Below, in pieces: positions 12,510-45,900 of a stretch of DNA of 64,000 bases. A program made the position numbers and the translations under genes. The stretch spans positions 17,869 through 81,868 of the forward strand of contig JBGAJA010000005.1 in assembly GCA_044225175.1 (NCBI GenBank), read 5' to 3'. How positions within the stretch are numbered: the stretch's first letter is position 1; every line of letters begins with the position of its first letter. The DNA is from Candidatus Omnitrophota bacterium (GTDB lineage: Bacteria; Omnitrophota; Gorgyraeia; Zapsychrales; Fredricksoniimonadaceae). A model generated the notes under the pieces. It did not search any database. It worked only from the letters and a program-made list of their open reading frames with translations, and was not told where the DNA came from.

Positions 12510-12649
12510 AAAATGTCCTCAAAAGGGATTAAATTGTGTTGGAAACTTTTCACATAATCTAACAAATTAACCCTCCAGTCAAGGATCAATTCAGAAAAAG
12601 CCTTCAGTTGGCTATATATATAAATATAGGGTATACTTTTTCCAATTCT

Positions 12650-15600
12650 ATGAAATTCCCGTTTAAAAAGCCTTTAATCCTGTGGATTCTCTTTGCCTTT
12701 GTGGTCAATACTTTTGGGCCCTTGCCAGCTTCTGCCCAAGAGATAACACTCCCAAAGCCTGGTGAGATGGTGCATTTAAGTACAGCTGTAAACCCACCCA
12801 TCCTAAAGGGACTCAAGGTCCACCCAGATAACCCTTTTAGGTTCGATTTTATCCTGGATCAGGGGGAACAGCCCGACGCTATTTCGACTAAATTGAAGGA
12901 AGATTCCACCCGTCTAATCAAGTACTTTTTAGCCTCTTTAACGATTCCCGAAGTGGATCTTTGGGTCAACTTAAGCCCCTATGAGAAAGACAGAATCATC
13001 CCAAACAGCTTTGGCTTAACCGAGATGGGGCGCGACCTTCTAGCCCAGGATTACATGCTCAAGCAGATTACCGCCAGCTTGATCTATCCAGAAGCCGAAG
13101 TGGGAAAGAGATTCTGGAAGCGAATCTATGAGGAAGCAGCCAAAAGGTATGGAAACACCAATATTCCAGTCAACACCTTCAACAAGGTTTGGATAGTTCC
13201 TGAGAAGGCGGTTGTCTATGAGAACGCAAAGGCTGAGACAGCTTATGTGGTTGAGTCCAGGCTCAAGGTTATGCTGGAAGAAGATTACCTATCCAAAGCC
13301 AAGAATGACCTTCAATCTAAAGCCAACAGCCCGTCGCTAAATGCCTCTAATTTAGGATCTCAAATCATCCGAGAAATCGTCCTTCCAGAGCTGATCAAAG
13401 AGGTGAATGAAGGTGCCAACTTTGCCCAGCTCAGACAAGTCTACAGCAGTCTAATCTTAGCTACGTGGTACAAGAAAAAGATCAAAGACAGCATTCTATC
13501 CCAAGTCTATTCAGACAAGAATAAAGTCTCCGGAATTGATATTAATGATCCAGCCCAAAAGGACAAGATCTATCAGCAGTATATCCAAGCTTTCAAAAAG
13601 GGCGTCTACAACTACATCAAGGAAGAAATTGATCCAGCAACTCAGCAAGCTATTCCTAGGAAATATTTCTCAGGAGGAGCTAAGTTTGGCAATTTGGCTA
13701 TGACAACTACAAACCAATTTCCTCAAGTTATTCCTGCTGGTTTAGTTGCTATCCAAGCCGAAATTAAGAGTAGTAATCCAGAAGGAAAGACAAATGCGGC
13801 AATGATAGCCCCTCTAACTGCTGGAGAAAAGTTTGTATCAGAATTGGACGATAAAATTATTCTTGATGGCCAAGGGCGAATTAGGTACGCCGCTGGACAT
13901 CCTACACCAATTGTTAAACCATTGTTTACATTCCTAGCTGAGCGTCATGGTGAGACTTTTGCAAATCTTGACGAACGGGCGCAGGGAGTTGCTGATGAGA
14001 ACCATTTAAATGAATCAACGCCGCATGGATTGGATCAAGGCAGAGATTCCGCCAAAGGATTATTCCAACGAGCAGATATTCAAGAAATGATTCGAAAGAG
14101 AATTCCTATTGTTGTCCTAACGAGTGGGAAAAAGCGAACGACGCAGGCCGCAGAACCCTTTATTAGACGCGTAGAAGAAGCAGGTGGGATTATTGAATAT
14201 GCCCCAGAGGAATTGATGAAAGGCGCTTCTGAAATAAATTTTGGAGCTGTGGAAAATAAAAAACTATCTCATTTTTCTCCAGAAGAAATTGAGATTCTTA
14301 ATCAGTATAGAAAACAATTAAGTGCAACTGCCAAATTCAAAGGCGGTGAAAGTTTTTTAGAATTGTTAATCAAGATCAAGAAATGGTTAGAAGAGTTAAA
14401 TAGGCTTTATGCCGGCCGGACAGTCGTGCTATTTGGACATGGTACACAACTAAAAGCAGTTCAAACCTTGCTGGGAGATCCATTGATAGTAGATCCTTCG
14501 GGATATATTAATCGAAATGCCTACGTAATTCCTAATGGCAAGATTATTGAATTACATAGTCCAGCCATGGCTGCCCCAGCCATAAAATCTACTTTCGATG
14601 GATCAGCTCTAAAGTATAGCTCTGATTCTATAATCCAAAACGCACCAGAATTTGAAAGGGTTGATATGTTTCTTGATTGGTATAAGGCCAATCGAGAAAA
14701 ATTACCAGCCAAAGATGGTTATAGAGAATTCTTAAGTGCTTCTTATACGGCTAACGTTTTAATGCATGCAGGTAAGATCACAATAGAAAGGTTGGAAGAA
14801 TTTCAAAGAGAGGCAGGTGCTTATGAATATGGTCAAGAATCTGCTGTAATCCAGAATGCTCCGGAATTTGATGATGTAGAGAAATTCTTAAAATGGTATG
14901 ACGACAAACATGAACAACTGCGGTCTAAGGACCATCCTGAAGAATTTTTATCTAGAAGTTACACCTTTCAAGTCTTGAGACGTTGGGGAAAAATTAAGCA
15001 AAAGAAATTCCAGAGTATTTTGAGGCATATTATCTCTTATGAATACGCCCAGGAGTCTATAGTTATTAAGCATGCCCCAAAATTTGAGGACGTGGAAGCC
15101 TATCTTAAATGGTATAGAACTAATCGAGAACAATTGCCATTTAAAGATGATCCTAAGAAATTCTTAACTGCTGGTTCTGTTGTTATGGCATTGATGCATG
15201 CTGGAAAGATTGATAAAGAAAATTTTCAAGATTTTCAAAGGCATGTAGGAGCTTATGAATATGCTCAGGAATCCGAAATTATACTCAGTGCTCCAGAATT
15301 TAATGATGTAGGATATTTTTTAAAATGGTTTAGAACGAATGGAGAGAAATTAAGATCTAAAGAAAATCCTGAGATATTTATAAGTGCAAGTTATGCCGCG
15401 CTTTGTTTAATGTATGCCAGAAAGATTAAACGCGAGAAATTGGAGCATTTTCAAAGGCAGGCTGGAGCTTACGAGTATGCCCAGGAATCTGCGATTATAC
15501 AAAGTGCACCAGAATTTAATGAGATAAGCGAATTTATAAAATGGTATAGAGCAAATCGTGTGCTACTGCGCTCAAAAGAGCATCCAGAAGAATCTTTAAG

Positions 15601-18600
15601 CGGAAGTTATACGGCTCAAGTTTTAATGCATGCAGGTAAGATTCCTTCAGAAAGATTAACAAAGTTTCAGTTACATGTGGGAGCCTATCAACGCGCAATA
15701 GATGAAGAGAAAATAATTACAGCAGAAATGCAAAGAATTTGGAAAGAGTCGATTCACAAAGAACTCTCAGGGCTCCCTCGAATCAAAGCCGCCTTTAATC
15801 CGCAACTATTATTAAATAAAAGAATCTCAAAAGGTCCATCCAAACCATTAGGAGCGGAATATCGCAATCTAATCCTCACATATGCGTATGAGTATTATGG
15901 AGAAAAAGAAGAAGCTTCGATAAACCCGGCTATGGCTTCCAATCTGGGAAACGTTTCTGTAGCAGAGAGAGCTTCCTATCTTGTTTATCGATATTTATTG
16001 TTGGCTTTATATCAACTGCGTGGAAGTGGTGAATATTTGGATCGTCGTGCAATCATGGATCATTTAATGAAAAATTCAGATTATAAAAGGGAGGTTTTTA
16101 ATCCTAATTCAGGCTGGGTTGATATTAATTTTAGGAAAACTGGCATTTTAGGAGTGGGTCTTATTATTAAAATGCCAGATGAGAAGAAATTTAAGTTAAC
16201 AGAAGCCGGAATTGCTTTTATGGAACGATCTTATCGATTAACAGGTGATGCTTTCATTTTAGCTTTAAAAGATCAACAAAAACAATATGCTCAAGGTTCA
16301 ATAGATTCTAAGAGCGGGGAAGATCCTGTTGAACTGGTTAGATATCCCAAAGATTTCAATATTCTTAATAAAGTTAAACTAAAAATTGCTATTGCGGACA
16401 GCGTTGTTCAAAAGACAGTCGATTCTAAATTACAATATGTGGTTAATTTAGAAGAGGTAATTGAGAAATATTCTGAAGGATTATCGCCTAGATACTTAAT
16501 ACAAGCACAACAACTTTCTAAGTTAATAGAAAAACAACTTGTAGCCTTTGGCTTTACCAAGGCTAGAGATATGGGTCTTGATAAATCAAATTTATATAGT
16601 AGAGACCGTTCCTATAATCTTGATTTGATTGCAAATCCAAACATCATTAGAACCCAAGATGAAATAAATTTTGAACCTTATCGCAATTTTCTACTTGCTT
16701 TGCATAGGCTCAATTCTGAAGAAATAAAAGATTCCTATAGCCCTCAAGAGGTTTGGAAAAAGATTCAAGTGCTCTCGCGAGAAATGGAATTGCAAGTAGT
16801 GTTTTCTTCGGTAACTGCAAAACAACTTAAAAGTGCTTATGAATCTATGGCTCAAAGGGGTGTTTTATTAATAGAAAGAACTGAGAAAGGGTATAGGTTA
16901 AGTTCTGAAGGATTGAAATTCATGCAAGAAAATGGGAATTTGATAAAGGAAAGTTTGCTTAAGGCTCTAAAAAGACATTTGTATGATATAGAACAATACG
17001 AGTTAAGAAGGGAATGGTTAAGATTGCCGCAAGCTGGTGGGACATTGAACAATGCTCCTACAGGTGATCAAGTTTATAAACCTAAGTTATTATCTGAAGT
17101 TGAATTCAGAAGTATAGAAGAAATATTCGAAGCGTCATCGCACCCAGAAGTAGGCCAGTGGTTAACTTCTCAAGATATTGTTGCTTTTGAAGGACATCAA
17201 ATTGGCAAGGACAGAATTCTTAAAGCTTTAAAGTCTCCTTTTAGAACTAGTCTTGAGAGTATGGGATTGGCAAATACAGTTTTTTATCCTGTCAAAGTTA
17301 ATCAACCCATGTTAATTCAGAAAGATTTTGAGCAATTAATCAGCAAAAGAAAAGATGAAGGAAATTTCAATATTCTCATTTATCAAATTGGACTAGGTGA
17401 GGAAGGTTTTCTTGAAACTAGAGATATTTTTAACGCTTTAAAAAATGCGTTTCATCAAGCGGGGATATCTCAAGAAGATCAACAAAAGTGGAAAGTTACA
17501 TTTATTGGTGTTGATGTCATTAAAACTATTGTGGATGATTTTATTCAGAAATTTTCTGTAAAGACTGATTTCCAGAGCAATATTTTGACCATTAGAGCGG
17601 ATGCTTTGGTAGAGGACCAGATGAGATGGTTAGGAGAGAAGTTTAAGTCAGATTATTTGTTCTTTCGTAATGTAGCCTATGGAAATTATCGAGCGTCTAG
17701 AGGTCATTTAAAAAGCTATATCAATGTTGTAGAGACGCTTGCTATTTATCTGGGTACCAAAAATATACTTAAACATCTAAGTGTTCCAGAAACTCGTTTT
17801 GTAATTGAGCCTGCCCAAGAATTTGAAAACACCCAGAATTATGTCTTCCATGCCCCAGGAACACGCATCGTAACATTGAAACATTATGATCCCACAAAAG
17901 AATTTTTAGATCTAAACAATGTGATTAACACAGGGACAGGAATATATAAGGTATTAGATCCAGGTGCAATGGACAGAGAAGGTCTGCAATATTTTCTTGA
18001 TCATGTTACTGAATTTGAAAAGCCTGTGGCTGACCAAGCTCAAAAGGCCCCCTCTCTTTCTAGTTATTCTACTTTGAAACTTAATGATCGCAGCAATTTA
18101 TCAATGACCCTTATAGGCTCAAATCCAGGATCTCGAGCAGATTATATTAAGGTGGGGAATAGGAAAGACTATAAGTATGGATTTACTCGAGAAGAATTGC
18201 TTCAGCGTGAGGCGGCTTTGATGCAGGTGTTATCGACAGATCAAAGATATAATCAAATAAGAAAATATCTTCCAGTTTTTAAAGGTTTGGGACGTCTTGA
18301 TATTTCTGATGTACGTAATGTGATACCGCGTCTGCCTAGGCGTTCTTCAATTCCAGATGTTCCTCCGAGGTTTTTTCAAGAAGAGGATTTCTTAGGTTCA
18401 TATATGGTAACAGAGGATGCTGGTGATCCGATATATGCTATTGCCAATGAAGTTAGGGAAGGAAAACTGACCGAAGATGACTTGTTGAAAACAATGTCCT
18501 TGTTAGTTCAATCAATCTACGATTTTCATCATGCTGGGATTGCTTTTGGAGACCTCACTCCAGATGAAATTTTTATAGCACCCTCTACAGAGAAGGTGAC

Positions 18601-21100
18601 TATTATTGATTATGGTTTGGCAATGATTGATGAGGATAGAGATTTTGGTTATGAGAATCTAAAATCTTTTGGATTAGATAGATGGGAAGGTAGATCTGAT
18701 TATGGGGGTGGAGGTCCTGATTGGTTTAAGCGGGACGTAAGAACTGTGTTGACAATTTTGGATGCCATGACGCCAAATTCTAAATTTGGAAATTTTTTTA
18801 TAAGCCAGTTTAATATTGAAACAGTGCTTAAGGATTTTGACAATAATCCCTTATCTATATCAGATGTATTGTCGAAAGTTCAGGATATAGAACGTCAATG
18901 GTATGAGCATTCCAATGCGGCCATGACTGCTAAATTGCCCGTTGGAGTCGTGCAGTATTGGAGAGACTTGCCAAAACCTTGGGAATCGACTCTTGAGCGT
19001 TATCCTAGTCATCATCAAACGTTAATGGACAGAATGGATGCAATCACTAAAAGGGTTCGTAAATTTGCACAAGGAAAGGCAATTACTCTGACTGAGATTT
19101 GTTGTGGAACAGGTAAGTTGTTTGCTTCTTTAGTTCAATTGCCCGGTGTCACAAAGGCTGTTGCTATTGATATTAATGCCAAGGCTTTAGATAGTTTGAA
19201 AGATCGATTGCATGGAATTGAATCAAAAACTTCCGATATTAGCGTTTTTGAAGGTGACATCAATGGTCCGCTGGCCAAAGACATTGTGCCAAACTCCGAT
19301 GTCATTGTGATTAACGATGCATTAATGCATATGCCTGATTTAGAAAAGGTGTTGGACTTGGTTGCTGAGCGTTTGTCGGAAGGTGGTTTATTCATGGGAA
19401 GTGGTATTTCGCGTGAAGGCTTATTTAAAGAAACTCCCATTTTGGGACCTCTTTGGTATGTAGGATATCGTTTTATTCTTCCTCAATTCGAAAGGGTTGG
19501 TTTAGGAGCGCTTGCTAACAGGGTCGTGCAGTGGGAATCGCTTCGTATCCGCCTTACAGCTCAAAGTCAAAGAGAGATTAAGGAGATGCTAGGAAAAAGA
19601 TTTGATATTGAAGAGATCACTGTAAAAGGACGTCACTATCAATTTACCGTCAGAAAAAAAGATGGAAAAATAGAAGATAGCGCTCAAATATCTGAGGAAT
19701 CTGTGAAGACCCCGGAAAATATGGTAAAGGTTCCTGTCACCCAAGAGGAGTTGGTTGGTTTTATCGGGGATATTCGAACTAAGATGCAAGCTATTTACGC
19801 GCGTAGTAATGATCCAACGAACAGTTCGTATTGGCATGTTTTTGATGAGATCGTAAATACATATAAAGAAGAAGTTAATGCGTCAGACAATCAATTGAAA
19901 ATGTTTGCTGATTTATATACTGAAACGAGTTTAATAGGGCCGCTCATTCCTCGTCCCAAAGAAGCCAAACATGTGCTTTTAGCTATGGCCATGTTTTTAA
20001 TGCTTGCCAATCATAGGAAGGAAAATGTATATACGAGCGAAGTATTCAATGAATTAAGAAATCTTATTGATGACTATAACAAACAATCCTTTGTAACTTT
20101 TCCTTTCAGTTTGTCCTCGCTATTTGTAATCGCACTAACGCCATACTTCCATGATCCAGACTTATTTGTTGAGTTATGGAATAAATTAGACCAACTTCCA
20201 GATGATATTAGTCCACAAGCAAAATTTTTATCTATGTTTTCGGTCTCTGCTCATTTAGGAGTAGTTCGTGTTGATGGAGACGATGATTTTAAGATAATTT
20301 ATCAAAAGATCGAGGGAATTTTGGCTGACAAATCACATCCCGATCAAATTCCAGACTCTTTAAAGAGAGTTCTATTAAACTCTATTGCTAAAGTTTTGCC
20401 TTCCATTTATCACCCTAATCATAAGGACGTTTATTCAGGCTTTCATCGTATGATTGGATGGTCATCTGGTTTTCGAGAGAAATTTTTAAATTTACTTACA
20501 AAGCATAAAGATTTGATCTGTGATATTTATTATGAATATTTTTCAAATTCTGATACTACGGATGATCCTATTCTGGCAGGGCTCGGCTTTAGTTTTTATT
20601 TAAAAGCAGAAAAAGAGTTATTGAGTAAAGTTTTGCGAGACAAAATACTTCAAATTACTGGATCACAACAATTACCACCGCTTAACGTATTAATTTCTGA
20701 TAGCCGTTTCCATGAAATATTAAAGGAAAGTCCTTTATACTCCAGATTAAAAGCTAATTTTTTTATTAAATATCTGCGACAATTTGTCGAGCTGAAAGAA
20801 GATAGTCCAACAGCTGTCGGTATTGAAGATCAACAATCAGTAAGCCCACAGCCTGGTTCCAGCCCAGCCATGGCGGTACGGACGGAAGCAAAGCAAGGGG
20901 GGGTTGATTTTACGGCAAATAAAACTCCTTTAGAGGTTCAAAATGTAGGAGGCGACATTCAATTTCATATTGATCTTGCCATGATGAAACAATTGCAAGC
21001 TGCTCCGGGGTTTTATCCTGTCATTATGAATATAACCCCGCTAAAAGATTTAAAGGTATTTTTAGACGTAGAGACGACCGGCCGGTCGTCTCTACAATAA
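12650..21100 (+). CDS. Giant secreted multidomain protein, paralog 1 of a 3-member family. Domains: conserved N-module, histidine-phosphatase-like, five tandem ~72-aa repeats, protein-kinase-like, SAM-methyltransferase
   Basis: Single ORF of about 2816 aa counted from the signal peptide MKFPFKKPLILWILFAFVVNTFGPLPASAQE. The ORF track start at 12608 is probably upstream of the real start. The N-terminal 340 aa are paralogous to 26159.. and 42980.. and the C-terminal 60 aa are paralogous to the C-termini of the other two. Motifs: LAERHGETFAN (RHGE...N) and LFGHGTQ; HAGIAFGDLTPDEIF...IIDYGLA; LTEICCGTGK...VIVINDALMH...GGLFMG. Confidence 0.8.
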   Translation: MKFPFKKPLILWILFAFVVNTFGPLPASAQEITLPKPGEMVHLSTAVNPPILKGLKVHPDNPFRFDFILDQGEQPDAISTKLKEDSTRLIKYFLASLTIPEVDLWVNLSPYEKDRIIPNSFGLTEMGRDLLAQDYMLKQITASLIYPEAEVGKRFWKRIYEEAAKRYGNTNIPVNTFNKVWIVPEKAVVYENAKAETAYVVESRLKVMLEEDYLSKAKNDLQSKANSPSLNASNLGSQIIREIVLPELIKEVNEGANFAQLRQVYSSLILATWYKKKIKDSILSQVYSDKNKVSGIDINDPAQKDKIYQQYIQAFKKGVYNYIKEEIDPATQQAIPRKYFSGGAKFGNLAMTTTNQFPQVIPAGLVAIQAEIKSSNPEGKTNAAMIAPLTAGEKFVSELDDKIILDGQGRIRYAAGHPTPIVKPLFTFLAERHGETFANLDERAQGVADENHLNESTPHGLDQGRDSAKGLFQRADIQEMIRKRIPIVVLTSGKKRTTQAAEPFIRRVEEAGGIIEYAPEELMKGASEINFGAVENKKLSHFSPEEIEILNQYRKQLSATAKFKGGESFLELLIKIKKWLEELNRLYAGRTVVLFGHGTQLKAVQTLLGDPLIVDPSGYINRNAYVIPNGKIIELHSPAMAAPAIKSTFDGSALKYSSDSIIQNAPEFERVDMFLDWYKANREKLPAKDGYREFLSASYTANVLMHAGKITIERLEEFQREAGAYEYGQESAVIQNAPEFDDVEKFLKWYDDKHEQLRSKDHPEEFLSRSYTFQVLRRWGKIKQKKFQSILRHIISYEYAQESIVIKHAPKFEDVEAYLKWYRTNREQLPFKDDPKKFLTAGSVVMALMHAGKIDKENFQDFQRHVGAYEYAQESEIILSAPEFNDVGYFLKWFRTNGEKLRSKENPEIFISASYAALCLMYARKIKREKLEHFQRQAGAYEYAQESAIIQSAPEFNEISEFIKWYRANRVLLRSKEHPEESLSGSYTAQVLMHAGKIPSERLTKFQLHVGAYQRAIDEEKIITAEMQRIWKESIHKELSGLPRIKAAFNPQLLLNKRISKGPSKPLGAEYRNLILTYAYEYYGEKEEASINPAMASNLGNVSVAERASYLVYRYLLLALYQLRGSGEYLDRRAIMDHLMKNSDYKREVFNPNSGWVDINFRKTGILGVGLIIKMPDEKKFKLTEAGIAFMERSYRLTGDAFILALKDQQKQYAQGSIDSKSGEDPVELVRYPKDFNILNKVKLKIAIADSVVQKTVDSKLQYVVNLEEVIEKYSEGLSPRYLIQAQQLSKLIEKQLVAFGFTKARDMGLDKSNLYSRDRSYNLDLIANPNIIRTQDEINFEPYRNFLLALHRLNSEEIKDSYSPQEVWKKIQVLSREMELQVVFSSVTAKQLKSAYESMAQRGVLLIERTEKGYRLSSEGLKFMQENGNLIKESLLKALKRHLYDIEQYELRREWLRLPQAGGTLNNAPTGDQVYKPKLLSEVEFRSIEEIFEASSHPEVGQWLTSQDIVAFEGHQIGKDRILKALKSPFRTSLESMGLANTVFYPVKVNQPMLIQKDFEQLISKRKDEGNFNILIYQIGLGEEGFLETRDIFNALKNAFHQAGISQEDQQKWKVTFIGVDVIKTIVDDFIQKFSVKTDFQSNILTIRADALVEDQMRWLGEKFKSDYLFFRNVAYGNYRASRGHLKSYINVVETLAIYLGTKNILKHLSVPETRFVIEPAQEFENTQNYVFHAPGTRIVTLKHYDPTKEFLDLNNVINTGTGIYKVLDPGAMDREGLQYFLDHVTEFEKPVADQAQKAPSLSSYSTLKLNDRSNLSMTLIGSNPGSRADYIKVGNRKDYKYGFTREELLQREAALMQVLSTDQRYNQIRKYLPVFKGLGRLDISDVRNVIPRLPRRSSIPDVPPRFFQEEDFLGSYMVTEDAGDPIYAIANEVREGKLTEDDLLKTMSLLVQSIYDFHHAGIAFGDLTPDEIFIAPSTEKVTIIDYGLAMIDEDRDFGYENLKSFGLDRWEGRSDYGGGGPDWFKRDVRTVLTILDAMTPNSKFGNFFISQFNIETVLKDFDNNPLSISDVLSKVQDIERQWYEHSNAAMTAKLPVGVVQYWRDLPKPWESTLERYPSHHQTLMDRMDAITKRVRKFAQGKAITLTEICCGTGKLFASLVQLPGVTKAVAIDINAKALDSLKDRLHGIESKTSDISVFEGDINGPLAKDIVPNSDVIVINDALMHMPDLEKVLDLVAERLSEGGLFMGSGISREGLFKETPILGPLWYVGYRFILPQFERVGLGALANRVVQWESLRIRLTAQSQREIKEMLGKRFDIEEITVKGRHYQFTVRKKDGKIEDSAQISEESVKTPENMVKVPVTQEELVGFIGDIRTKMQAIYARSNDPTNSSYWHVFDEIVNTYKEEVNASDNQLKMFADLYTETSLIGPLIPRPKEAKHVLLAMAMFLMLANHRKENVYTSEVFNELRNLIDDYNKQSFVTFPFSLSSLFVIALTPYFHDPDLFVELWNKLDQLPDDISPQAKFLSMFSVSAHLGVVRVDGDDDFKIIYQKIEGILADKSHPDQIPDSLKRVLLNSIAKVLPSIYHPNHKDVYSGFHRMIGWSSGFREKFLNLLTKHKDLICDIYYEYFSNSDTTDDPILAGLGFSFYLKAEKELLSKVLRDKILQITGSQQLPPLNVLISDSRFHEILKESPLYSRLKANFFIKYLRQFVELKEDSPTAVGIEDQQSVSPQPGSSPAMAVRTEAKQGGVDFTANKTPLEVQNVGGDIQFHIDLAMMKQLQAAPGFYPVIMNITPLKDLKVFLDVETTGRSSLQ
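14630..15710 (+). repeat. Five in-frame tandem coding repeats of about 213-219 bp (~72 aa) inside giant paralog 1
   Basis: Repeating unit SAPEF(N/D)DVExFLKWY(R/D)xNxExLRSKxxPEEFLSxSYTAxVLMHAGKIxxExLxxFQRxAGAYEYAQES. Unit starts are near 14637, 14848, 15066, 15290 and 15503. Confidence 0.75.
21068..21095. repeat. 28-bp GC-rich perfect palindrome GTAGAGACGACCGGCCGGTCGTCTCTAC, copy 1; it overlaps the last codons and stop of giant paralog 1
   Basis: Perfect inverted repeat. Identical copy at 25092-25119. It encodes ...VETTGRSSLQ* and likely acts as a terminator hairpin. Confidence 0.7.
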
Positions 21101-26158: not shown

Positions 26159-29100
26159 ATGCGAAGACTAATAGTCGCTCTAATCTTGGTTTGCTTTATT
26201 ATAAGCTCTTTGATTCCTATGCCTGCCAATGCCCAGGAATTTGCTTTGCCTGTCCCTGGGACGATGATTCATCTAAGTTCCCAATACACTCCAGCCCATT
26301 TAGCTGGCCTTGTGATCCACCCCGAAGATCCATTCAAATTTGATTTTTTAATTCATCGTGGCGATCAATTCGTAGGGGATGGGCTTGCCCCATCCCAAGA
26401 AGGGCGAATGCAAGATTCGCCCCTACAAGATAAACAGGTGGTCTATTCAAAATTAATTAAATACTTCCTAGCTTCACTAACCGTCCCCGATGAAGACCAA
26501 TGGGTAAATTTATCTCCCTATGAGAAGGAGCGTATCATTAATGAGAATTTTGGTAAAACAGAGATGGGGCGAGATCTGTTGGCCCAGGACTATCTATTGA
26601 AACAGATCACCGCATCCATGATTTATCCCCAAGACAAGTTAGGAGAGAAGTTTTGGGAGAAGGTGTACAGGCAAGCATGGGAGAAGTACAAGACAACCAA
26701 TATCCCAGTAAATACGTTTAATAAAGTATGGATAGTTCCCGATGAAGCAGCCGTGTACGAATCAGGGAATACAGTGTATGTGTTAAAGAACCATTTAAAA
26801 GTCATGTTAGAAGAAGATTACCTAGCCAAGAAAAAGGTGTCTGACACCTTTTTGGATGGAGCAGGTGTTAAAAAGGTGTCAGACACCTTTTTGACAAGCC
26901 AGGTGATGCGGCAGATCATTTTGCCGGAGTTGGAGCGTGAAGTTAATGAAGGGAAGAACTTTGCAAATCTTAGGCAGATCTATAGTGGGATGATCTTAGC
27001 TACATGGTACAAACGAAGCCTTAAGGAATCCATTCTTTCTAAAGCCTATGCCAATAAATCGAAGGTCAAGGGGGTCAATCAGGTTGATACCAAGGCCAAT
27101 GAGGATATATATCAGCAATATTTGAAATCCTTTAAGAAGGGAGTATTTAACTACATCAAAGAGGATGTGGATAAGTATTCGAAACAGGCTATTCCTAGGA
27201 AGTATTTTTCAGGTGGAATGACCCATGGGTTAGAGAAAGTGAATGTTTATAGTTCAGATAAAGCCATGCCGGCTGAATATCGTCCTGATGCCGCGACGCT
27301 ATCAGGCCTTGATATAGCTCAGGTATTACTAAGAACGGATAGGGAAATAACAGATATAAGAAATGATGCTAGTAGAAGAATAGACATCAATTTGTCTGAA
27401 TTTATTTATAAATTCTTGTTAACTAAGTCAGGAATATACAGATTATTTAAAGGAAATCCCCCTATTCAAATGTCTAGATCATGGAACATCAAAAGAGAAA
27501 AGAAGAGTGAAGATCAAGAATTGCCAGACCGTAGTTATTATGAGCAATTGAATGATGAAAATGATGCTAAATCTTTTGATGAATTGATGGCGCAGCTATT
27601 GCCTCAAGTCCTAAATAATAAGATTCCAGGCATTCTTTATAAGCCCAATCAAGCAGGAAATGGGCGAGGAATATTCTTTATTGAGAGAAATTCAGAGGGT
27701 GGTTTAACAGTAACAATGCTTTCAAGACCAAAAAGACAAGGAGAGTTGTCTCCAGAGGAACTTACTCAGATTCTTAGTCCTGGTATAGAAGTCCGAACAA
27801 GTTTAGAAGAAGAAATCATGCAGTTTGATCTTCCAAAGACTATGGGTGAGAATCGTCACAGAGAGATTTTAAAGAATTTGTGGAGTTATTTATCGACAAG
27901 AGAAGGAGCTTATGATTCTGGCATCATTCAAGTGATGGAGTCTTTTGTAAAGGTTTCCAACCCGCAGGAACACAAGCGTCGTGCCTTTGATACTAGGTTT
28001 GTATTTCATGGAAATTTATCTTCTGGACGTATTAAATTTATTTCTAATGAATCAATTGGAAGGGTAGGTTCTTCGTCATACTTTTCTAATTTGGGTGGTA
28101 GTCCCAATCTTTCAGATCATCCTTATGGATTTAAAGGGGAATCAAGGCCGTATTGGTATAATAGCCAGGATATGTTTAAGCCTGTATTTGATGCTTTTCC
28201 AGAGTTGTTTGATTCTTTTAAGAATGCAAAGGCTTCTGAGGAGAAAAGAAAATTTATTGCTGACACCTACAAAAGACTTGAGGAACAATTTAGATACTTA
28301 ACCGAACGATTAAAATCCACTGGAGCTAATTTAGATTTAATGGTGGATGGACAATTTGACTTAATGTGGAAGAAACCCTTTAAAGTCGGGGATTTTCCTG
28401 AGCCGATTTTGGTTGAATCATGGATCAATCTATTAGATCCAGGAAAAGATTTGTCTGGAATTAAGTTTCAATTAGAAGCGGATAAAGATCATGCTATGGT
28501 GATTGCTGTTGGTCAAAAAGAGAAGTTTATACTTCCTCATGGGGTATCGTGGATCAAAATAGGAGAAGTTCCTATTGAAGTCACTTGCAGAGCTAGTGAG
28601 ATTTATTTGAATGCCTATAGGATTGGCTGGCATGGCCCTATTTTAAAAGATGGTTCAATCGATTTGAATGATTTAACTAATACACAAGTGCCTATTGTGG
28701 TTAATAGGTTGCCAGGTAATACCAATATATTAATTATAGAAAATAAATCGTACGAACCTTTAGGAGTTATTCCAAATTATTCAGAAGAATCATTAGGAGT
28801 TAAAAGGCATGGATTGGCTTTGTTTAAGGATCAATCATCTATTTTGTTGTTTAAGAAAGGGCGAGAACAAGATTTTATAATCATGGGGGATTACTTTAAA
28901 GTCAAATTCTCTCAAGAGGGCATTTATTTCTCATCGATGGCATTTGGAATCGAAGATGATTTTATAAAACAAGGAGAGTCGAAGGATTATGACTTGAGAA
29001 ATGGGACAGCTTTTACACTTGAAGTTTCATCTCATGATCCTCGCCGCATCATTATTAGAAATAAACGTACCATCCCATTATATATTTCCAATATTCCGGG

Positions 29101-32100
29101 TATTGAAGATATGTCTCATATTAAAGGTAAAAATATTTTCACATTTCAAAGAACAGAACAACGGAAGCCAATTAAGATCAATGGAGTTCCTTTTACCATA
29201 GAACGTACGGGTGATTCTTTTTTTGTAAGATCCCCATTCTATGAGGGATTCTTATCGATGCGTCAGCAAGAGTCTTTAGATGTTCGTATTCCAGATCAGC
29301 CTCAAATTAATCAAAAAGCTTTTCAGATTAGATTTTTGATTCCAAGCGGTGGGTATGACTTTGTTATTCTGAATCTGACAGAAGAATCTTTGATTATTGA
29401 GGAAGATCAAACTTCAGCTATTTGGATAGGGGATCGAAAACCTTCTCCTTTATGGAAAGATTTAGAGGAAACTTTAATTGAAGTGGAAGGCCAAAGTAAA
29501 AATGAAGTTAATAAAGCAGTGAGGCTGTTGAAAGAAAAGCCTATAACAGTGTGGAAGATAGGCGTCTATGAGGGTAGATGGACTCAAGATATTGCAAGAA
29601 GAAATGAGAATATAGGACTAATTGTAACTGAGAATTTTTCTGCACAAACTAATTCCAGGCCTGGAGACTCATTGGATGATTGGAGGCGAGGATCTTTGGA
29701 TGTTCAAATACAGCAACCTGATAATTTAGCTGTCCTTAATGGTTCAGTTCGCAGTATCCTTAGTAATATGCCGGATAATTCTTTAGATACTATTATTTTT
29801 GAGAATACTGAAGCACGCAGTTTTTCTGAAGGCCAGGAAGTAGTTGTTTTAGATGGGAGAGATAAGCAAAGAACGTGGACTTTTCTAAGTAGGAATATTT
29901 CTCTCGTGTTGAGAAAATTAAAGCCTGGTGGAAAATTGATTATTGCGCCGTACCATTTATCTAATACTTATCAAATAGCAAATAATGAATTCTACAAAAC
30001 TTGGCAGAAAAGTGAGACTCCAGGAATAGATTTCACGACAAGAAAATCATATTGGGCTTATTCTAAGGACATTGCAGTTCTGATTAAAGACAGTGCAATG
30101 AAAGCGGATCACAAGGAAGATATTATTTCAGTTGAACAGTTCAGAAAAATTATGAGCAGGGCTATTTTAAGAGCAGACCCTAATATTTTTGAATTTAAAG
30201 ATAGAACGGCATCTTTTTTTAATGCTTTTTTAAATGCATTATTAGAGCATGACATTAAGAAGGGAAGATCAGCTTCAGAGGTAATGATGGCTATATCGCA
30301 AATCATTGATTTGTTGCAGCCAGAGAACTTTACTAAACATACATTTACCAATCCTGAAGCATATGTGCGTGAATGGGTGGAGGATTATGCTCCTTATTTT
30401 AAAGAGGATAAAACTTTTGAGAAATCAGCTATTGTGGCCCTTAAGTATTTATTGAAAAATCCAGAACATCAAAGTACAGAAGCTGATGATGAGGGATTTG
30501 AAGATACGGTGGACCCAGACCAAAATGTTTCTTTCAATGATCAAGGAGCTAAATTGCTTAAAATGGCTTTTAATGCTTTGCAGTTATATGTAAAGGCTAA
30601 GGCCAAGATGAAAGCTATTTTACAAAGATTCCCAAAAATTGAATCGATGGAATTGTATCCGAATCATACCTCAACAATTTTTCTGGATAAAAAGTACCCA
30701 CAGGCACAAATCTTTTATTTAAATGGGATGGAAGCTTCTGTACAACGAGATGATCAGGGAGATGTTTTTTTATCGATTCCTGAAATTGAGATTCAATCTA
30801 AAGAAATTGAACAAGGAGGATTTGTTTCTTACGATATAAGAGGAGTCAGTGTTGGGATCCAATTATCAGATTATACAGATCGTGTGGTTATTAAGAACTT
30901 GAACCCAATGGTACCCATGGTTCTAGCCATCGAGAATTTACCAGCCATTGTTGAAAGTTCTTCTATATTTAATGAAGAGCAAAATTCTTTGAATGACTCT
31001 TTTTTTCTTCCCTGGCGTGAGAGAGCCACACTTTCTTTTTTCGGAAATGAAAATACTGAGAAAGAATTTCAGTTAAATGGAAGGGTTTTTAAGGTCCTTT
31101 TCTTATCTAAAGGTAGTATTTTATTACAGCATGGCAGCTCAAATGAATTTATTCCCTCGAAAAGTTCCAAGATAATTTCTCTGCCTGCAGATGAAAAGAG
31201 TAATAATTCTCTTAATGTCAGCATATCATCTCCTCAAGGACAGTTAAAATTGACAATTGTGAATCTAAGTGAGCAATCCTTAAAAATTGAAAATAAATTT
31301 AATCGCTTAGCGGACGTGGCGCGAGATTCTGAGAAGATCGTTATTAGTACAATTGAGCAAGTAGAAGAAATTGCCAAATCTTATGTGCAAGATACTCGTT
31401 TAGGAGAACAAATGGTTAAGGACACGAATTTGGGGGAAGATGATTTGATTGTAGTTTTGACATTTATTCTTCTTGATAAATATTTAAATGAGAAAAATAT
31501 AGATTTAAATATTGAAGATCCCCAGCAATTAACTCGGGAAGTCAAGAAGCGCGCCAAGAATATTAAATGGCGAGAGTACCTCGTTAAGAAATTTAATCTT
31601 AAGCAGAGAGGTCAAAGAAATAATAGGGGTAGTAGCAGGAATGAAATTATAAATCCTTCTTATGAAACTTCAGATTCTCTAAATACCTCAGGGCAGATTA
31701 CACATGGTGAGTTTTATGCGCGATTACAGATGTTAAAAGAGGGGTTAAGAGCATTAATAGATTCTTGGGAAACACGACAGGAATACTCGGACACTTTTAG
31801 AGAAGAAAGTACTATAAAGTTCTTACTTACCACGGAAAATTTTCTTAGAGTTATTCAAACTTTAGATAATGATCGTGTCAATATTGAGAATTTAAGTCTT
31901 GAGTTTGGTTTTGAATCAGCTGGCTTTATAAATAATCTTAAGAAGTCTATTGAATCCAATGCCATACAATCGGAAGTAAGTTACATTATCAATACGATTG
32001 CTCTGATTTTAGGAATGGATAAGAAAAATCCTAATTATTTTTATACGATGACAGGGGATGAAGATGATAAATCCCTTAAAGAACTTACAATTTATAAACA

Positions 32101-32371
32101 TGCTAAGCAGATTTCTAGAATTAATGGGAGTGGAAGTCATGATGCGGCTATGGTTGCGTTGAATAAAGGAGGTATTGATTTTAATTCGTCCAATTTAAAT
32201 CTTCAAATCAAACGTGATGGCAAGGGTGTGCCATTGCCTTTTGCCCAGCAAGATATGGCCCAAATCAATAATATTGAGGGCTTTGTGCCAGTGATTCTAG
32301 AGATCAAACCTGCCGGTAACTTGCCTTTTTTTTCCGAACTTCAGGCGCAGAATAAGTTTGCGACTAGATAG
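26159..32371 (+). CDS. Giant secreted multidomain protein, paralog 2. Conserved N- and C-modules with a central region containing a TTL/ATP-grasp-like motif and a possible methyltransferase-like motif
   Basis: 2070 aa. Signal peptide MRRLIVALILVCFIISSLIPMPANAQE. N-module about 60% identical to paralogs 1 and 3. KPNQAGNGRGIFFIE resembles the tubulin-tyrosine-ligase/ATP-grasp P-loop. LKPGGKLIIAPY resembles MTase motif III. The C-terminal GGIDFNSSNLNLQIKRDGKGVPLP... is shared with paralog 3. Confidence 0.8.
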   Translation: MRRLIVALILVCFIISSLIPMPANAQEFALPVPGTMIHLSSQYTPAHLAGLVIHPEDPFKFDFLIHRGDQFVGDGLAPSQEGRMQDSPLQDKQVVYSKLIKYFLASLTVPDEDQWVNLSPYEKERIINENFGKTEMGRDLLAQDYLLKQITASMIYPQDKLGEKFWEKVYRQAWEKYKTTNIPVNTFNKVWIVPDEAAVYESGNTVYVLKNHLKVMLEEDYLAKKKVSDTFLDGAGVKKVSDTFLTSQVMRQIILPELEREVNEGKNFANLRQIYSGMILATWYKRSLKESILSKAYANKSKVKGVNQVDTKANEDIYQQYLKSFKKGVFNYIKEDVDKYSKQAIPRKYFSGGMTHGLEKVNVYSSDKAMPAEYRPDAATLSGLDIAQVLLRTDREITDIRNDASRRIDINLSEFIYKFLLTKSGIYRLFKGNPPIQMSRSWNIKREKKSEDQELPDRSYYEQLNDENDAKSFDELMAQLLPQVLNNKIPGILYKPNQAGNGRGIFFIERNSEGGLTVTMLSRPKRQGELSPEELTQILSPGIEVRTSLEEEIMQFDLPKTMGENRHREILKNLWSYLSTREGAYDSGIIQVMESFVKVSNPQEHKRRAFDTRFVFHGNLSSGRIKFISNESIGRVGSSSYFSNLGGSPNLSDHPYGFKGESRPYWYNSQDMFKPVFDAFPELFDSFKNAKASEEKRKFIADTYKRLEEQFRYLTERLKSTGANLDLMVDGQFDLMWKKPFKVGDFPEPILVESWINLLDPGKDLSGIKFQLEADKDHAMVIAVGQKEKFILPHGVSWIKIGEVPIEVTCRASEIYLNAYRIGWHGPILKDGSIDLNDLTNTQVPIVVNRLPGNTNILIIENKSYEPLGVIPNYSEESLGVKRHGLALFKDQSSILLFKKGREQDFIIMGDYFKVKFSQEGIYFSSMAFGIEDDFIKQGESKDYDLRNGTAFTLEVSSHDPRRIIIRNKRTIPLYISNIPGIEDMSHIKGKNIFTFQRTEQRKPIKINGVPFTIERTGDSFFVRSPFYEGFLSMRQQESLDVRIPDQPQINQKAFQIRFLIPSGGYDFVILNLTEESLIIEEDQTSAIWIGDRKPSPLWKDLEETLIEVEGQSKNEVNKAVRLLKEKPITVWKIGVYEGRWTQDIARRNENIGLIVTENFSAQTNSRPGDSLDDWRRGSLDVQIQQPDNLAVLNGSVRSILSNMPDNSLDTIIFENTEARSFSEGQEVVVLDGRDKQRTWTFLSRNISLVLRKLKPGGKLIIAPYHLSNTYQIANNEFYKTWQKSETPGIDFTTRKSYWAYSKDIAVLIKDSAMKADHKEDIISVEQFRKIMSRAILRADPNIFEFKDRTASFFNAFLNALLEHDIKKGRSASEVMMAISQIIDLLQPENFTKHTFTNPEAYVREWVEDYAPYFKEDKTFEKSAIVALKYLLKNPEHQSTEADDEGFEDTVDPDQNVSFNDQGAKLLKMAFNALQLYVKAKAKMKAILQRFPKIESMELYPNHTSTIFLDKKYPQAQIFYLNGMEASVQRDDQGDVFLSIPEIEIQSKEIEQGGFVSYDIRGVSVGIQLSDYTDRVVIKNLNPMVPMVLAIENLPAIVESSSIFNEEQNSLNDSFFLPWRERATLSFFGNENTEKEFQLNGRVFKVLFLSKGSILLQHGSSNEFIPSKSSKIISLPADEKSNNSLNVSISSPQGQLKLTIVNLSEQSLKIENKFNRLADVARDSEKIVISTIEQVEEIAKSYVQDTRLGEQMVKDTNLGEDDLIVVLTFILLDKYLNEKNIDLNIEDPQQLTREVKKRAKNIKWREYLVKKFNLKQRGQRNNRGSSRNEIINPSYETSDSLNTSGQITHGEFYARLQMLKEGLRALIDSWETRQEYSDTFREESTIKFLLTTENFLRVIQTLDNDRVNIENLSLEFGFESAGFINNLKKSIESNAIQSEVSYIINTIALILGMDKKNPNYFYTMTGDEDDKSLKELTIYKHAKQISRINGSGSHDAAMVALNKGGIDFNSSNLNLQIKRDGKGVPLPFAQQDMAQINNIEGFVPVILEIKPAGNLPFFSELQAQNKFATR
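26831..26893 (+). repeat. Two tandem in-frame copies of the 24-bp palindromic element (AAAAAGGTGTCTGACACCTTTTTG / ...GTCAGAC...) inside giant paralog 2, encoding the duplicated peptide KKVSDTFL
   Basis: Copies at 26831-26854 and 26870-26893, separated by 15 bp. Identical to the intergenic hairpin at 9613-9636. They sit in a linker that is hypervariable among the three paralogs. Confidence 0.75.
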
Positions 32372-42979: not shown

Positions 42980-45900
42980 GTGGAGAGTAATATGAAAACC
43001 CCAAAAGCCATTTCTATTATTGTTTTAACAGCCTTCTTGACAACATCTCTCAATATTTCCGGGTATGCTAAAGACGTTTCGTTATTACCCGCTCCAGGTG
43101 TTATGGTTCACTTAAGCCCTGAATTTACTCCTGCCCATTTAAAAGGAATTGTTATTCACCCTGATAATGCTCTTAAATTCGATTTCATCATCAATAAAGG
43201 CGACAAGCCTTTAGATGAAGTGACAAAAAAGGCAGAATATACCAAACTTATTAAATATTTTTTAGCTTCCTTAGCCGTGCCTGATGACAATCAATGGGTC
43301 AATCTTTCGCCTTATGAAAAGAACCGTATTATTAAGGAAGACTTTGGAAAAACTGAAATGGGGCGAGATTTACTAGCGCAAGATTACCTACTTAAACAAA
43401 TTACAGCTTCTTTAATATACCCTCAAGACAAGTTAGGCCAGAAATTCTGGGATGAAGTTTATGCAAAAGCCCAGCAGCAATTTGGCACAACCAATATTCC
43501 AGTTAATACGTTCAATAAAGTTTGGATTGTCCCAGATGATGCTGTGATTTATGAAAAAGGTAATACAGCATATGTCATTAAGCATCATTTGAAGGTCATG
43601 CTAGAAGAGGACTATTTGTCTTTAGGAAAGCATGGTGGTATTCAGGAAAAATCGATCCGTGATTCCAATAAAGCCCATGCGATCGGTTCACAGGTCGTTC
43701 GTGAAGTTGTTTTACCTCAGCTTGAAAAGGAAGTTAATGAGGGGCAAAATTTTGCTCCTTTAAGACAGGTCTATAGCGGTATGCTCCTAGCTGCGTGGTA
43801 TAAAAGAGCTTTAAAGGAATCATTGCTTTCAAAGATCTATGCGGATAAATCCAAAATTAAGGGAATCAATCAGGACCCTAAGAACAATGAGGCTATTTAT
43901 CAGCAGTATCTCAAGGCTTTCAAAAAAGGTGTATTTAACTTTATTAAGGAAGATGTGGATAAGTATTCGAAGCAAACTATTCCAAGAAAGTACTTCTCTG
44001 GTGGAACAATTGGGGATGGTGCCATGTTTGCCAAGGTAGTGCGTATTATAAAGACCCTTGATCCGGCTCAAGCAGCCAGTTTAGCTAAATCTCTTGCAAG
44101 CGATGACTTAGCTCAAGTAATGGCTCATGAGACCCAAGATTCAGCTATGAGTGGAACAGAAGTCAATTTCTCTTGGAATAATGGAAAGAATTCATTCCAA
44201 GTAAAAAGAGGTACCATGTTAGGTGGTTATAAACTACATAATATCCTTATGAATGGTAAGCCAACTACAGTTAAGCTTGGCAATTTACAGGGAAGTATCC
44301 TTAGAATAGAAGGGGCTGAAACGTTGATTATTGGAAAAGATAAAACATCCAATCAATATGTATTTATTACGGGTGATCGTGATCCAAGTATGCCAAGGAA
44401 CACAGTGTTTTATTTTGAAGAAGGTAAGGGCTCTGCTCCGAATCTTTTAGTAAATAAGTCTGTTAGGAATGGAAATTTTGAGACGATTGCAATATTAATG
44501 CCTGCTCAAGGAGTAGTTGGTAAACAAGCATTGGATGTACAGAATTTTTCTGATCCTTCTTTGCTACTCAGTGATGAGACTGGTTCTCAAAAGTTACCAG
44601 TTGGAAAACAAATAAAAGTCTTAGATTATGCTCAATTAACCAGTAAAACTGCTGGCCAAGCCCTGTCAACATTGGATTTGCCTCCCGCTATACCTATGCC
44701 TGGTGCCACAGAAAGAACTATAAGGCAAAGAATTATAACGGATATTCATGTTGCTCACGTGTTAGATAGAATCAGGGAAAAAACAAACAGAGAGCCTGAT
44801 CCTGGTGTTTTAGATGGCTTTATAGATGTTGTACGGGAAGAGTCCAATGATATAAGGGCTATTGAATTAGCCATAGAAGCTATTTTAGGGGCGCATATAG
44901 AAGATGAATATTTGATGGATTCTTTTTTAACAGAGTTAAAGAAGATAGATTCCACTGAGAGTGCTAATAATTACATTTATTTGTTATCTGGAATGCTGAA
45001 AGACATGTCTGGTTTAGAATTAAGTATGAATGAAAAAGTTCGTAATGTGATCTTGAATCTATTCTACATTCAAGGTTTAAATAGTGCTCCAGAATTTAGA
45101 AGTCAATTTGAAAAGTGGTTAAAGAGATTTATAGAAATAGGTCGAAAGGGTAGAAGTGATGTAGAAATCGATCCTATGTGGCAGGATATCAAAGCAGAAG
45201 ATAAGGAAGTCTTTCAATCTTTGCCATACTCTATAGGATTAAGTCTCTACAAGGTTCGAATTGCTATGCAGTCAAATCTTCATATCAATGAAGCTTATAG
45301 AGATTACGAATCAACCATCAATATGGTTAATCAAGCAATTGCTCCACAGGGTGCTTCACAGAAGGTTCTTCCATCGAGCTTGGTTGTAGGAACAGAAGCG
45401 CTAATTCTCAATAGTTTTCTAACTTTAATCCCATTTGTTCTCGATTCATTAAATTTATTAATAGATGATTTTAAGAGTACAAGTGTGGATGACAAATTGA
45501 CACGTGTTAAAGATCTATTAATTAAAGTTGAATTTTTGCACGGAAAAATGATACAGGAGATTTCTAGTGAAAGTATTAATGGCGGTATGGGACTTTCTCA
45601 AAGGGGGAGGGATTTAAAAGAGCTGTTAGGAAATGTAGACGATCTGAAAGTGTTTCTTGATGAGGAAATTGCGAAAGTCGAGCTAATGTTGGGCGAAAGA
45701 GGTAATATGCATCAAATAGATCGTAATAAATATAGCGCTCAACGATTGAATCGAACATTAAGAATGGTTTTTTATTCTTTTAAGAAAAGATGGAGAGGTT
45801 TATCGTCTAAGTTAGATAGCCAAGGAATAGAAATTGAAGATATAGATAATGTATTTCGTCTTAGTTTAAAGAGACAAGAAATTGTTAATGAATTGATCCA

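Follow-up and report, generated by a model that had tools for sequence, protein, structure and literature searches.

The 64,000-nucleotide stretch of DNA analysed here (the window; positions 17,869 to 81,868 of contig JBGAJA010000005.1, forward strand, assembly GCA_044225175.1 of a Candidatus Omnitrophota bacterium) contains three long open reading frames (ORFs) which have two parts in common, the first 360-390 and the last 60-77 amino acids approximately, and which differ in the cargo between them. The second of these, paralog 2, encodes a protein of 2070 amino acids in which an earlier note, made from the letters alone, had pointed to a motif resembling those of tubulin tyrosine ligase (TTL) and other ATP-grasp enzymes, and to possible methyltransferase motifs further downstream. 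In this work we have analysed the modules of this protein and their relatives. The reading that we favour, with a probability of roughly 0.6, is that of a Sec-exported protein of head, cargo and tail, which carries a divergent ATP-grasp ligase together with a module of the TrmB/Kam methyltransferase fold and acts beyond the cytoplasm of its producer.

Organization of the locus

The ORF list of the window gives paralog 2 as a single ORF on the + strand (Table 1), and the 2070-codon frame with both peptide strings quoted in the earlier note is indeed present there. An identical protein has been deposited in a public collection (P0121 in our numbering). The signal peptide is the sole hydrophobic segment of the protein; an equivalent segment is found in all three paralogs, each of which begins with a signal peptide, and in the consensus of the family, and a hydrophobicity scan revealed no second hydrophobic segment or transmembrane helix in paralog 2 or in paralog 1. 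The nearest relatives of the N-terminal domain are nearly all labelled Candidatus Omnitrophica or Omnitrophota. About 900 residues lie outside the assigned domains and make up two beta-repeat blocks and two helical regions.

Table 1 Features of the paralog 2 gene and of the two related genes in the window
Feature	Residues	Position	Strand	Basis
ORF of the 2070-amino-acid modular protein (paralog 2)		26159..32371, stop codon included	+	ORF list; identical protein public as P0121
Sec-type signal peptide MRRLIVALILVCFIISSLIPMPANA, putative cleavage before QE		26159..26233	+	sole hydrophobic segment; cleavage site predicted from sequence
Conserved N-terminal scaffold domain (head)	26-390	26234..27328	+	53-59% identical to two paralogs
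Divergent ATP-grasp (TTL-like) domain, very probable	419-773	27413..28477	+	family profile match; AlphaFold2 model; Foldseek
Lysine/glycine-loop motif KIPGILYKPNQAGNGRGIFFIERN (K495 strand, then AGNGRGI as ssxGbGl)	488-511	27620..27691	+	alignment; exact string
D-T-R, ExR motif (ETR in relatives)	611-613	27989..27997	+	alignment
Last two long strands with invariant D734 and E753		28358..28417	+	33- and 52-sequence alignments; model strands 289-299 and 309-319
Beta-rich repeat block 1, about three units of ~100 residues ending I-x-N-x-S..L-x-I	~790-1090	28526..29428	+	motif scan
Predicted class I methyltransferase-fold domain, TrmB/Kam type	1094-1302	29438..30064	+	profile match; AlphaFold2 model; Foldseek
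Degenerate motif I, VWKIGVYEGRW	1131-1141	29549..29581	+	alignment; end of model strand 1
LDTIIFENTEA, strand 4 and next loop	1209-1219	29783..29815	+	alignment, model
LRKLKPGGKLIIAPY, strand 5	1251-1265	29909..29953	+	alignment, model
Beta-rich repeat block 2, two further like units	1500-1770	30656..31468	+	self-comparison, motif scan
Conserved C-terminal module (tail), GGIDFN..NLQIKRDGKGVPLP..GFVPVILEIKP		32156..32368	+	60% identical to paralog 3, 26% to paralog 1
Paralog 1, 2830 amino acids, same head and tail		12608..21100	+	cargo: histidine phosphatase, kinase-like stretch, canonical methyltransferase
Paralog 3, 1271 amino acids, same head and tail		42980..46795	+	cargo without family match

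The ATP-grasp-like module

The region of the modules remained blank when the whole protein was compared with Pfam and NCBIfam, and single-sequence searches of the PDB, made with the complete protein as well as with its two segments, gave nothing useful. Homologues were collected by an exhaustive phmmer (HMMER) search of 1.84 billion representative sequences with residues 391-1300 as the query, which returned 66 proteins including the identical P0121. About 55 cluster representatives match residues ~450-760 at 24-39% identity; they are stand-alone proteins of 300-480 amino acids or modules inside proteins of 1.3 to 8 thousand residues, mostly from Omnitrophota, and about half of the carriers begin with a signal peptide. 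A word-indexed homologue search found nothing with residues 391-779 and only two proteins with a profile of 33 sequences. The species-representative genomes of GTDB were scanned with a sub-alignment of ten members of the ligase family, which located carriers on five contigs (four assemblies) of Omnitrophota and at one locus each in Elusimicrobiota, Planctomycetia and Oligoflexia, the module lying within a very large ORF at seven of the eight loci; the scan gave no match with a single ligase-bearing protein as the query.

The hallmarks of the ATP-grasp superfamily are a lysine on strand 2, a glycine-rich loop of about nine residues (ssxGbGl), the ExR motif and a terminal ExN motif (PMC4431377). 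Conservation of these elements was read from the 33-sequence alignment and from a larger one of 52 sequences. In the model of paralog 2, K495 ends strand 53-56, and the lysine is kept in at least 90% of the relatives in either alignment. It is followed by a loop of the expected length and form, K495-PNQAGNGRG-I505, for which the family consensus is KPNxxAxGxGI, and this is the best-conserved N-terminal block among the ~55 homologues. Alignments with TTLL7 and RimK land exactly on this motif, and a relaxed version of its pattern has a single match when the window is translated in all six frames, composition-preserving shuffles giving an expectation of 0.02. The peptide string given for it in the earlier note was exact, although the positions attached to it (27625-27690) were 5 nucleotides off and out of frame.

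The ExR motif is present in the family as ETR, with threonine and arginine invariant in the smaller alignment and conserved in at least 90% of the larger one; the glutamate is conserved in at least 90%, and paralog 2 has DTR. This motif has been placed on the first strand of the C-terminal kinase/PIPK-like subdomain and marks an assemblage of peptide ligases, a clade made almost entirely of peptide-type enzymes; the asparagine of ExN is sometimes replaced (PMC4431377). The two invariant acidic residues, D734 within FDLMW and E753 within PxLxE, are situated on the last two long antiparallel strands of the model. In TTL two Mg2+ ions are held by Asp318 and Glu331 and the carboxylate of the substrate is bound by Arg202 (PMC3563685), so that D734 and E753 would be the putative Mg2+ ligands in a predicted residue-by-residue correspondence with TTL. 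Further conserved blocks of the family are YDxGxxE, the last position of which is Q591 in paralog 2, and ARxGSSxxFSN. The module also has a conserved N-terminal block, K...R.L..GGPIxQP, present in paralog 2 as LTKSGIYRLFKGNPPIQ (residues 419-439, nucleotides 27413-27475), and several stand-alone homologues begin almost exactly at GGPIxQP.

Profile comparisons pointed in the same direction at low scores. The best Pfam family for the 2070-amino-acid protein is ATPgrasp_YheCD (PF14398; E=0.05, 13.2 bits against a cut-off of 26.8). Among the 33 relatives ATPgrasp_YheCD was matched below threshold by six, ATPgrasp_ST by five, RimK by one and ATP-grasp_4 by one (best E-value in any relative 0.009); every other Pfam family was matched by a single relative, and the families that recur are all ATP-grasp. 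ATP-grasp models account for nine of the 14 member hits in NCBIfam (carbamoyl-phosphate-synthase-like, biotin carboxylase, cyanophycin synthetase, LysX and RimK models). The family profile placed TTLL7 first or second in the PDB, together with eleven biotin carboxylases, none of them significantly; with the 52-sequence profile 12 of 14 PDB matches were ATP-grasp enzymes, more than with the smaller one (best E=0.14). When the family profile was aligned to Escherichia coli RimK with hhalign the probability was 2%, with the same motif aligned. The TTL/TTLL family itself, PF03133, was matched neither by paralog 2 nor by any of the 33 relatives at E<=10. Since none of these 33 reaches any threshold in Pfam or NCBIfam, the ligase family is unannotated.

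The structural modelling proposed in the earlier note supported its reading. AlphaFold2 modelled residues 440-775 with confidence, the predicted local distance difference test score (pLDDT) being 86.8 and the predicted template modelling score (pTM) 0.86, and the model has the three-dimensional ATP-grasp fold, with TTL as the nearest solved structure. The top 28 matches found by Foldseek in the PDB are all TTL (best E-value 1.8e-3; probabilities 0.72-1.00, mostly at least 0.9), with the TTL-like Pby1 lower in the list. In the viral library BFVD a Hokovirus protein of the TTL family comes first, and the list also includes CDC123. The TTL/ATP-grasp reading of the earlier note is thus upheld by conserved motifs, by a confident model and by the top position of TTL in both libraries, while the sensitive profile searches which it had called for yielded no significant ATP-grasp or TTL match and only sub-threshold ones, which point to ATP-grasp. 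We consider residues 419-773 very probably a genuine ATP-grasp domain; that TTL is its nearest characterised relative seems a somewhat better than even proposition. We regard the module as representing a new and divergent family of ATP-grasp enzymes within a new kind of architecture, outside PF03133 and the curated ATP-grasp families.

The methyltransferase-like module

Seven proteins from the exhaustive search match residues ~1097-1299. Their consensus comprises a motif I of the form LLEIGCGxG, an acidic residue after strand 2 (ATD), NLAxLRA, LPDxSLDxIL and LKPGG. The stand-alone relatives and P0158, another member of the scaffold family described below, score 23.4-23.6 bits on Methyltransf_4 (TrmB) against a cut-off of 24, and weakly on NpmA; the 2070-amino-acid protein itself stays below the Pfam thresholds (Methyltransf_24, E=0.16). 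Eighteen of the 20 PDB matches of the family profile are methyltransferases, the best being CbiT (E=0.0032). The AlphaFold2 model of the domain (pLDDT 77, pTM 0.80) was compared over residues 1090-1310 by Foldseek, which ranked E. coli TrmB (3dxy, E=3.9e-7) above UncKam, a methyltransferase of A1408 in 16S rRNA (7jlz, E=1.1e-6), with Trm8 and METTL1 also among the best matches. The PDB matches at E<=1e-3 number 74, and among the 50 matches listed all are class I transferases dependent on S-adenosylmethionine (SAM) or decarboxylated SAM. Because consensus, profile and model agree, the prediction of a class I methyltransferase fold (Rossmann-like, seven-stranded) can be regarded as secure.

The earlier note had read LDTIIFENTEA and LRKLKPGGKLIIAPY, both of which lie within the interval 29780-29960 that it gave, as resembling motifs II and III. 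The reading holds at the level of the fold, the two strings occupying strands 4 and 5 of the model, and we take them to be motifs II and III of the Kagan-Clarke scheme. A relabelling of the two strings as wrongly named motifs was considered and dropped, both fitting the second and third motifs of that scheme. The family conserves the LKPGG block, which can be aligned with CbiT and with a type 11 methyltransferase, and strand 2 still ends in an acidic residue, E1158 (aspartate in the relatives). An insertion of 18 residues, RSFSEGQEVVVLDGRDKQ, modelled with low confidence, follows strand 4 (residues 1220-1237, nucleotides 29816-29869) and is absent from all eight relatives.

The same note had found no convincing motif I. 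The canonical form is indeed missing, but an altered motif is present in its place, VWKIGVYEGRW, where the relatives have LEIGCGxG. An EIGCGxG-like loop is found in six of the eight relatives; in K1133-I-G-V-Y1137-E-G1139 of paralog 2 lysine stands for the acidic residue and tyrosine for the central glycine, which makes binding of SAM doubtful. To judge from the loop, SAM binding by residues 1094-1302 is probably lost or altered. P0122, a protein of 2568 amino acids from the scaffold family, contains tandem TrmB-like modules (residues 942-1116 and 1150-1343), of which copy 1 has a canonical motif I, LEIGGGSF, and copy 2 a degenerate block, WKIGIKEPRWTQDI, like that of paralog 2. The altered block IWKIGIKEPRWTQDI is conserved in copy 2 at an overall identity of 41%, and conservation of a non-canonical loop at this distance speaks for a function that was altered and kept, and against decay.

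The head-and-tail scaffold

The heads of the three paralogs are 53-59% identical and the tails 26-60%. At least 1545 homologues of the head were found (E-values down to 1e-136), the named ones almost all from Omnitrophota, and their alignment has 57 invariant columns. Typical members are only 620-680 amino acids long and some bear the same tail, so that the long paralogs look like insertions of cargo between head and tail. No relative of the head was found in Pfam, NCBIfam or the PDB, the last also searched with the head profile. The tail recurs in 17 of 120 retrieved members of the family and in P0122, P0131 and P0158, and had no match in the libraries searched; its position and conservation suggest a putative sorting or secretion signal or an anchoring element. 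Across the three paralogs it has the consensus GGID(F/L)N..NLQIKRDG.GVPLP..Q....I.G(F/L).PVI..I.P.

Paralog 1 carries as cargo a histidine-phosphatase domain (residues 446-620, E=3.8e-13) and a canonical methyltransferase of class I (2146-2315), with a stretch between them (1932-2006) that resembles protein kinases below threshold, and the ~800 residues of cargo in paralog 3 gave no recognisable family in Pfam or NCBIfam. The profiles of the ligase and methyltransferase-like domains match no ORF of the window other than paralog 2. It was correctly anticipated in the earlier note that the cargo of paralog 2 differs from that of paralog 1, head and tail being all that the two have in common. Among scaffold members elsewhere the ligase module is carried by P0126 and P0131 and the methyltransferase-like module by P0122 (twice), P0158 and P0176; these occurrences and the differences of cargo between paralogs support the modular scaffold-plus-cargo family which that note had envisaged.

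Proposed mode of action and alternative explanations

The 2070-amino-acid protein would be exported through Sec by means of its signal peptide, and would present a variable enzymatic cargo between a conserved head of ~360 and a conserved tail of ~65 residues. In TTL, RimK and glutathione synthetase the ATP-grasp mechanism proceeds through an acyl phosphate to an amide (PMC3563685). If this mechanism is shared, ATP would be bound between the subdomain with K495 and AGNGRGI and the C-terminal sheet, with Mg2+ held by D734 and E753; R613 of D-T-R would position the carboxylate of the substrate, which would be activated to an acyl phosphate and then attacked by the amino group of an amino acid or peptide, giving an amide bond. 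For the methyltransferase-like module, in which the SAM loop is replaced by the conserved WKIGxxExRWTQDI, a binding or regulatory role would be likelier than that of a canonical methyltransferase.

The export of the protein and the other protein- or nucleotide-modifying domains of its paralogs suggest that the ligase would have its targets among the molecules of a second cell, host or prey, or at the cell surface, and not in the cytoplasm of the producer. ATP being scarce outside the cytoplasm, the signal peptide makes action inside or on another cell the most economical assumption. Such action would also agree with the predatory or parasitic way of life and the large surface proteins of many enzymes that have been proposed for Omnitrophota (PMC10066038; bioRxiv 10.1101/2023.11.21.568195; 10.64898/2026.06.07.730766). 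The module is probably an amino-acid ligase acting on the molecules of another cell. A more specific version, in which the head-and-tail proteins are a delivery chassis of host-dependent Omnitrophota and residues 419-773 a TTL-like protein-amino-acid ligase that tags prey or host proteins, is put forward tentatively, as a speculation with the odds against it.

Several observations weigh against an exported ATP-grasp ligase. No profile match to the curated ATP-grasp models is significant for the protein or its relatives, and the statistics of the Foldseek match to TTL are modest (template modelling (TM) score 0.39, identity 10-16%). The asparagine of ExN is absent, E753 being followed by S-W755, and is not conserved in the family; Q591 takes the place of a glutamate found in 90% of the relatives, and D611 that of the glutamate of ExR. 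Apart from P0121 the homologue searches found no close orthologue of the protein. The gene neighbourhoods of four stand-alone homologues have no partner gene in common, and the lack of conserved neighbours leaves no hint of the substrate. An ATP-dependent enzyme behind a signal peptide would, moreover, be sent to a place where ATP is scarce.

With all sequence-profile statistics below threshold and TM-scores under 0.4, the resemblance might be thought fortuitous, a chance motif in an unrelated fold which AlphaFold let drift to a common alpha/beta arrangement. This we regard as highly improbable: the order of the motifs and their conservation across 52 sequences converge on ATP-grasp, the weak matches recur to ATP-grasp families only and do so in three libraries, two independent libraries rank TTL first by structure, and the motif pattern is expected only 0.02 times per window. 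The missing asparagine and the departures of Q591 and D611 from the family consensus could instead indicate an ATP-grasp fold without ligase activity, either a kinase-type phosphotransferase or a catalytically silent binding module, the more so as predicted ATP-grasp effectors of Legionella have been read as kinases (PMC11696984) and the same protein has, in the adjoining methyltransferase-like domain, an example of a degenerate enzyme fold. We consider this quite unlikely, given that the lysine, the glycine loop, the arginine of ExR and both acidic residues are all kept, that ExR marks a clade almost entirely of peptide-type ligases (PMC4431377), that TTL is described as using Asp318 and Glu331 alone for Mg2+ (PMC3563685), and that glutamine and aspartate are conservative replacements of glutamate.

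An active ATP-grasp enzyme could also serve its own producer by working on the envelope or on a small molecule; it would add amino acids to a surface polysaccharide, to a peptidoglycan-like polymer or to a secreted peptide, which is a role proposed for the sugar-transfer-associated and YheC/D families, and no other Pfam family recurs among the 33 relatives. The protein is, in addition, an exported member of a family of surface or secreted scaffolds, and the giant proteins of Omnitrophota are rich in sugar-processing domains (bioRxiv 10.1101/2023.11.21.568195; 10.64898/2026.06.07.730766). The matches in question, however, are sub-threshold and lie mainly over the generic lysine/glycine loop, and the closest structures belong to TTLs, which modify proteins, and not to ligases of small molecules. 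Neither the gene nor the stand-alone homologues have glycosyltransferase or polysaccharide genes beside them, and the supply of ATP outside the cytoplasm is equally problematic for such a role, which we hold to be unlikely. An exported ligase that acts on the molecules of another cell or at the cell surface remains the reading we prefer, at the strength given above.

Comparison with known systems

The nearest structural neighbours of the ligase module are the TTL/TTLL enzymes (PF03133; PDB 4i4t chain F, 3tig, 4ylr). The order of elements is the same, with the lysine strand followed by the glycine loop, D/E-x-R and two acidic residues on the last strands; the strand-loop FIVKPANGAMGHGISLI of TTLL7 aligns with LYKPNQAGNGRGIFFI of the module, and the chemistry would be alike, proceeding from an acyl phosphate to an amide bond. 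The module differs in the absence of a PF03133 match, in its low identity, in the family-specific N-terminal GGPIxQP motif and in being embedded in exported bacterial multidomain proteins, for which a eukaryotic tubulin substrate is not expected. The earlier note referred to bacterial homologues of TTL as effectors; those in the literature, such as Llo2200 of Legionella longbeachae (PMC2824747), are predictions only, and glutamylation by the bacterial SidJ relies on a kinase fold.

The families closest by hidden Markov model score, YheC/D (PF14398), ATPgrasp_ST (PF14397) and RimK (PF08443), share with the ligase family the lysine strand, the ssxGbGl loop and the ExR-type arginine; the scores are far below the gathering cut-offs, and the ligase family also differs in lacking a conserved ExN asparagine. 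The R2K/CDC123 group, likewise a divergent ATP-grasp clade missed by standard models and represented by CDC123 among the viral-library matches, comprises proposed protein-peptide ligases delivered to other cells as effectors in bacterial conflict systems (PMC4431377). In R2K enzymes the ssxGbGl loop is missing and a second lysine is found there (PMC4431377), whereas the ligase family keeps the canonical glycine loop, and membership in R2K/CDC123 was rejected for this reason.

The best structural counterparts of residues 1090-1310 are TrmB/Trm8/METTL1, which form m7G46 in tRNA, and Kam/NpmA, which form m1A1408 in 16S rRNA. The acidic residue E1158 and the LKPGG strand are common to both sides; the module differs from these enzymes in KIGVYEG for EIGCGxG and in the 18-residue insertion, and no RNA-binding context is evident around it. 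The giant proteins described from Omnitrophota ('Archaeovorins' and others; bioRxiv 10.1101/2023.11.21.568195; 10.64898/2026.06.07.730766) belong to the same phylum and are exported or membrane-associated chains of methyltransferase, kinase, phosphatase and HAD-type domains, and the ligase module too occurs in proteins of 3 to 8 thousand residues. The paralogs of the window are much smaller (1.3 to 2.8 thousand residues), have a fixed head and tail and lack transmembrane helices, with one candidate in paralog 3. ATP-grasp domains are not mentioned in either preprint.

Pfam and NCBIfam leave about 1600 residues of paralog 2 without annotation, as they do the corresponding modules in proteins that reach 8000 residues. 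With two modules linked to known enzyme folds, functional work on the large and little-understood proteins of Omnitrophota has a starting point. If an ATP-dependent ligase does follow a signal peptide, it would either be delivered into a second cell or take part in an extracellular chemistry of an unusual kind, and a ligase which tags prey or host would represent a novel type of effector between microbes and might be a prokaryotic relative of the lineage from which the eukaryotic TTL/TTLL enzymes arose. The arrangement of head, cargo and tail, if a secretion chassis, would explain how such genomes diversify their exported enzymes. In the methyltransferase-like module a non-canonical loop is conserved, and the canonical and degenerate copies of P0122 offer a natural pair for the study of pseudoenzyme evolution.

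Minor features of the locus

The neighbouring genes are ordinary housekeeping genes (subunits of pyruvate:ferredoxin oxidoreductase, FolD, DNA polymerase I, glycogen synthase), which indicates that the window is chromosomal. In paralog 1 a methionine codon 14 codons 3' of the listed TTG precedes the signal peptide, so the listed start is probably too far upstream. Paralog 3 differs from the other two in having at residues 801-828 an internal hydrophobic segment, LVVGTEALILNSFLTLIPFVLDSLNLLI, which could be a transmembrane helix. The two beta-rich repeat blocks of paralog 2 matched no known family, and block 1 is weakly similar to residues 1498-1605 of the same protein (E ~1e-4). Altogether about five beta-rich units of ~100 residues can be recognised, with the end motifs ILIIENKSYEPL, IIIRNKRTIPLYISN, FVILNLTEESLIIEE, VVIKNLNPMVPMVLAIEN and LTIVNLSEQSLKIEN.

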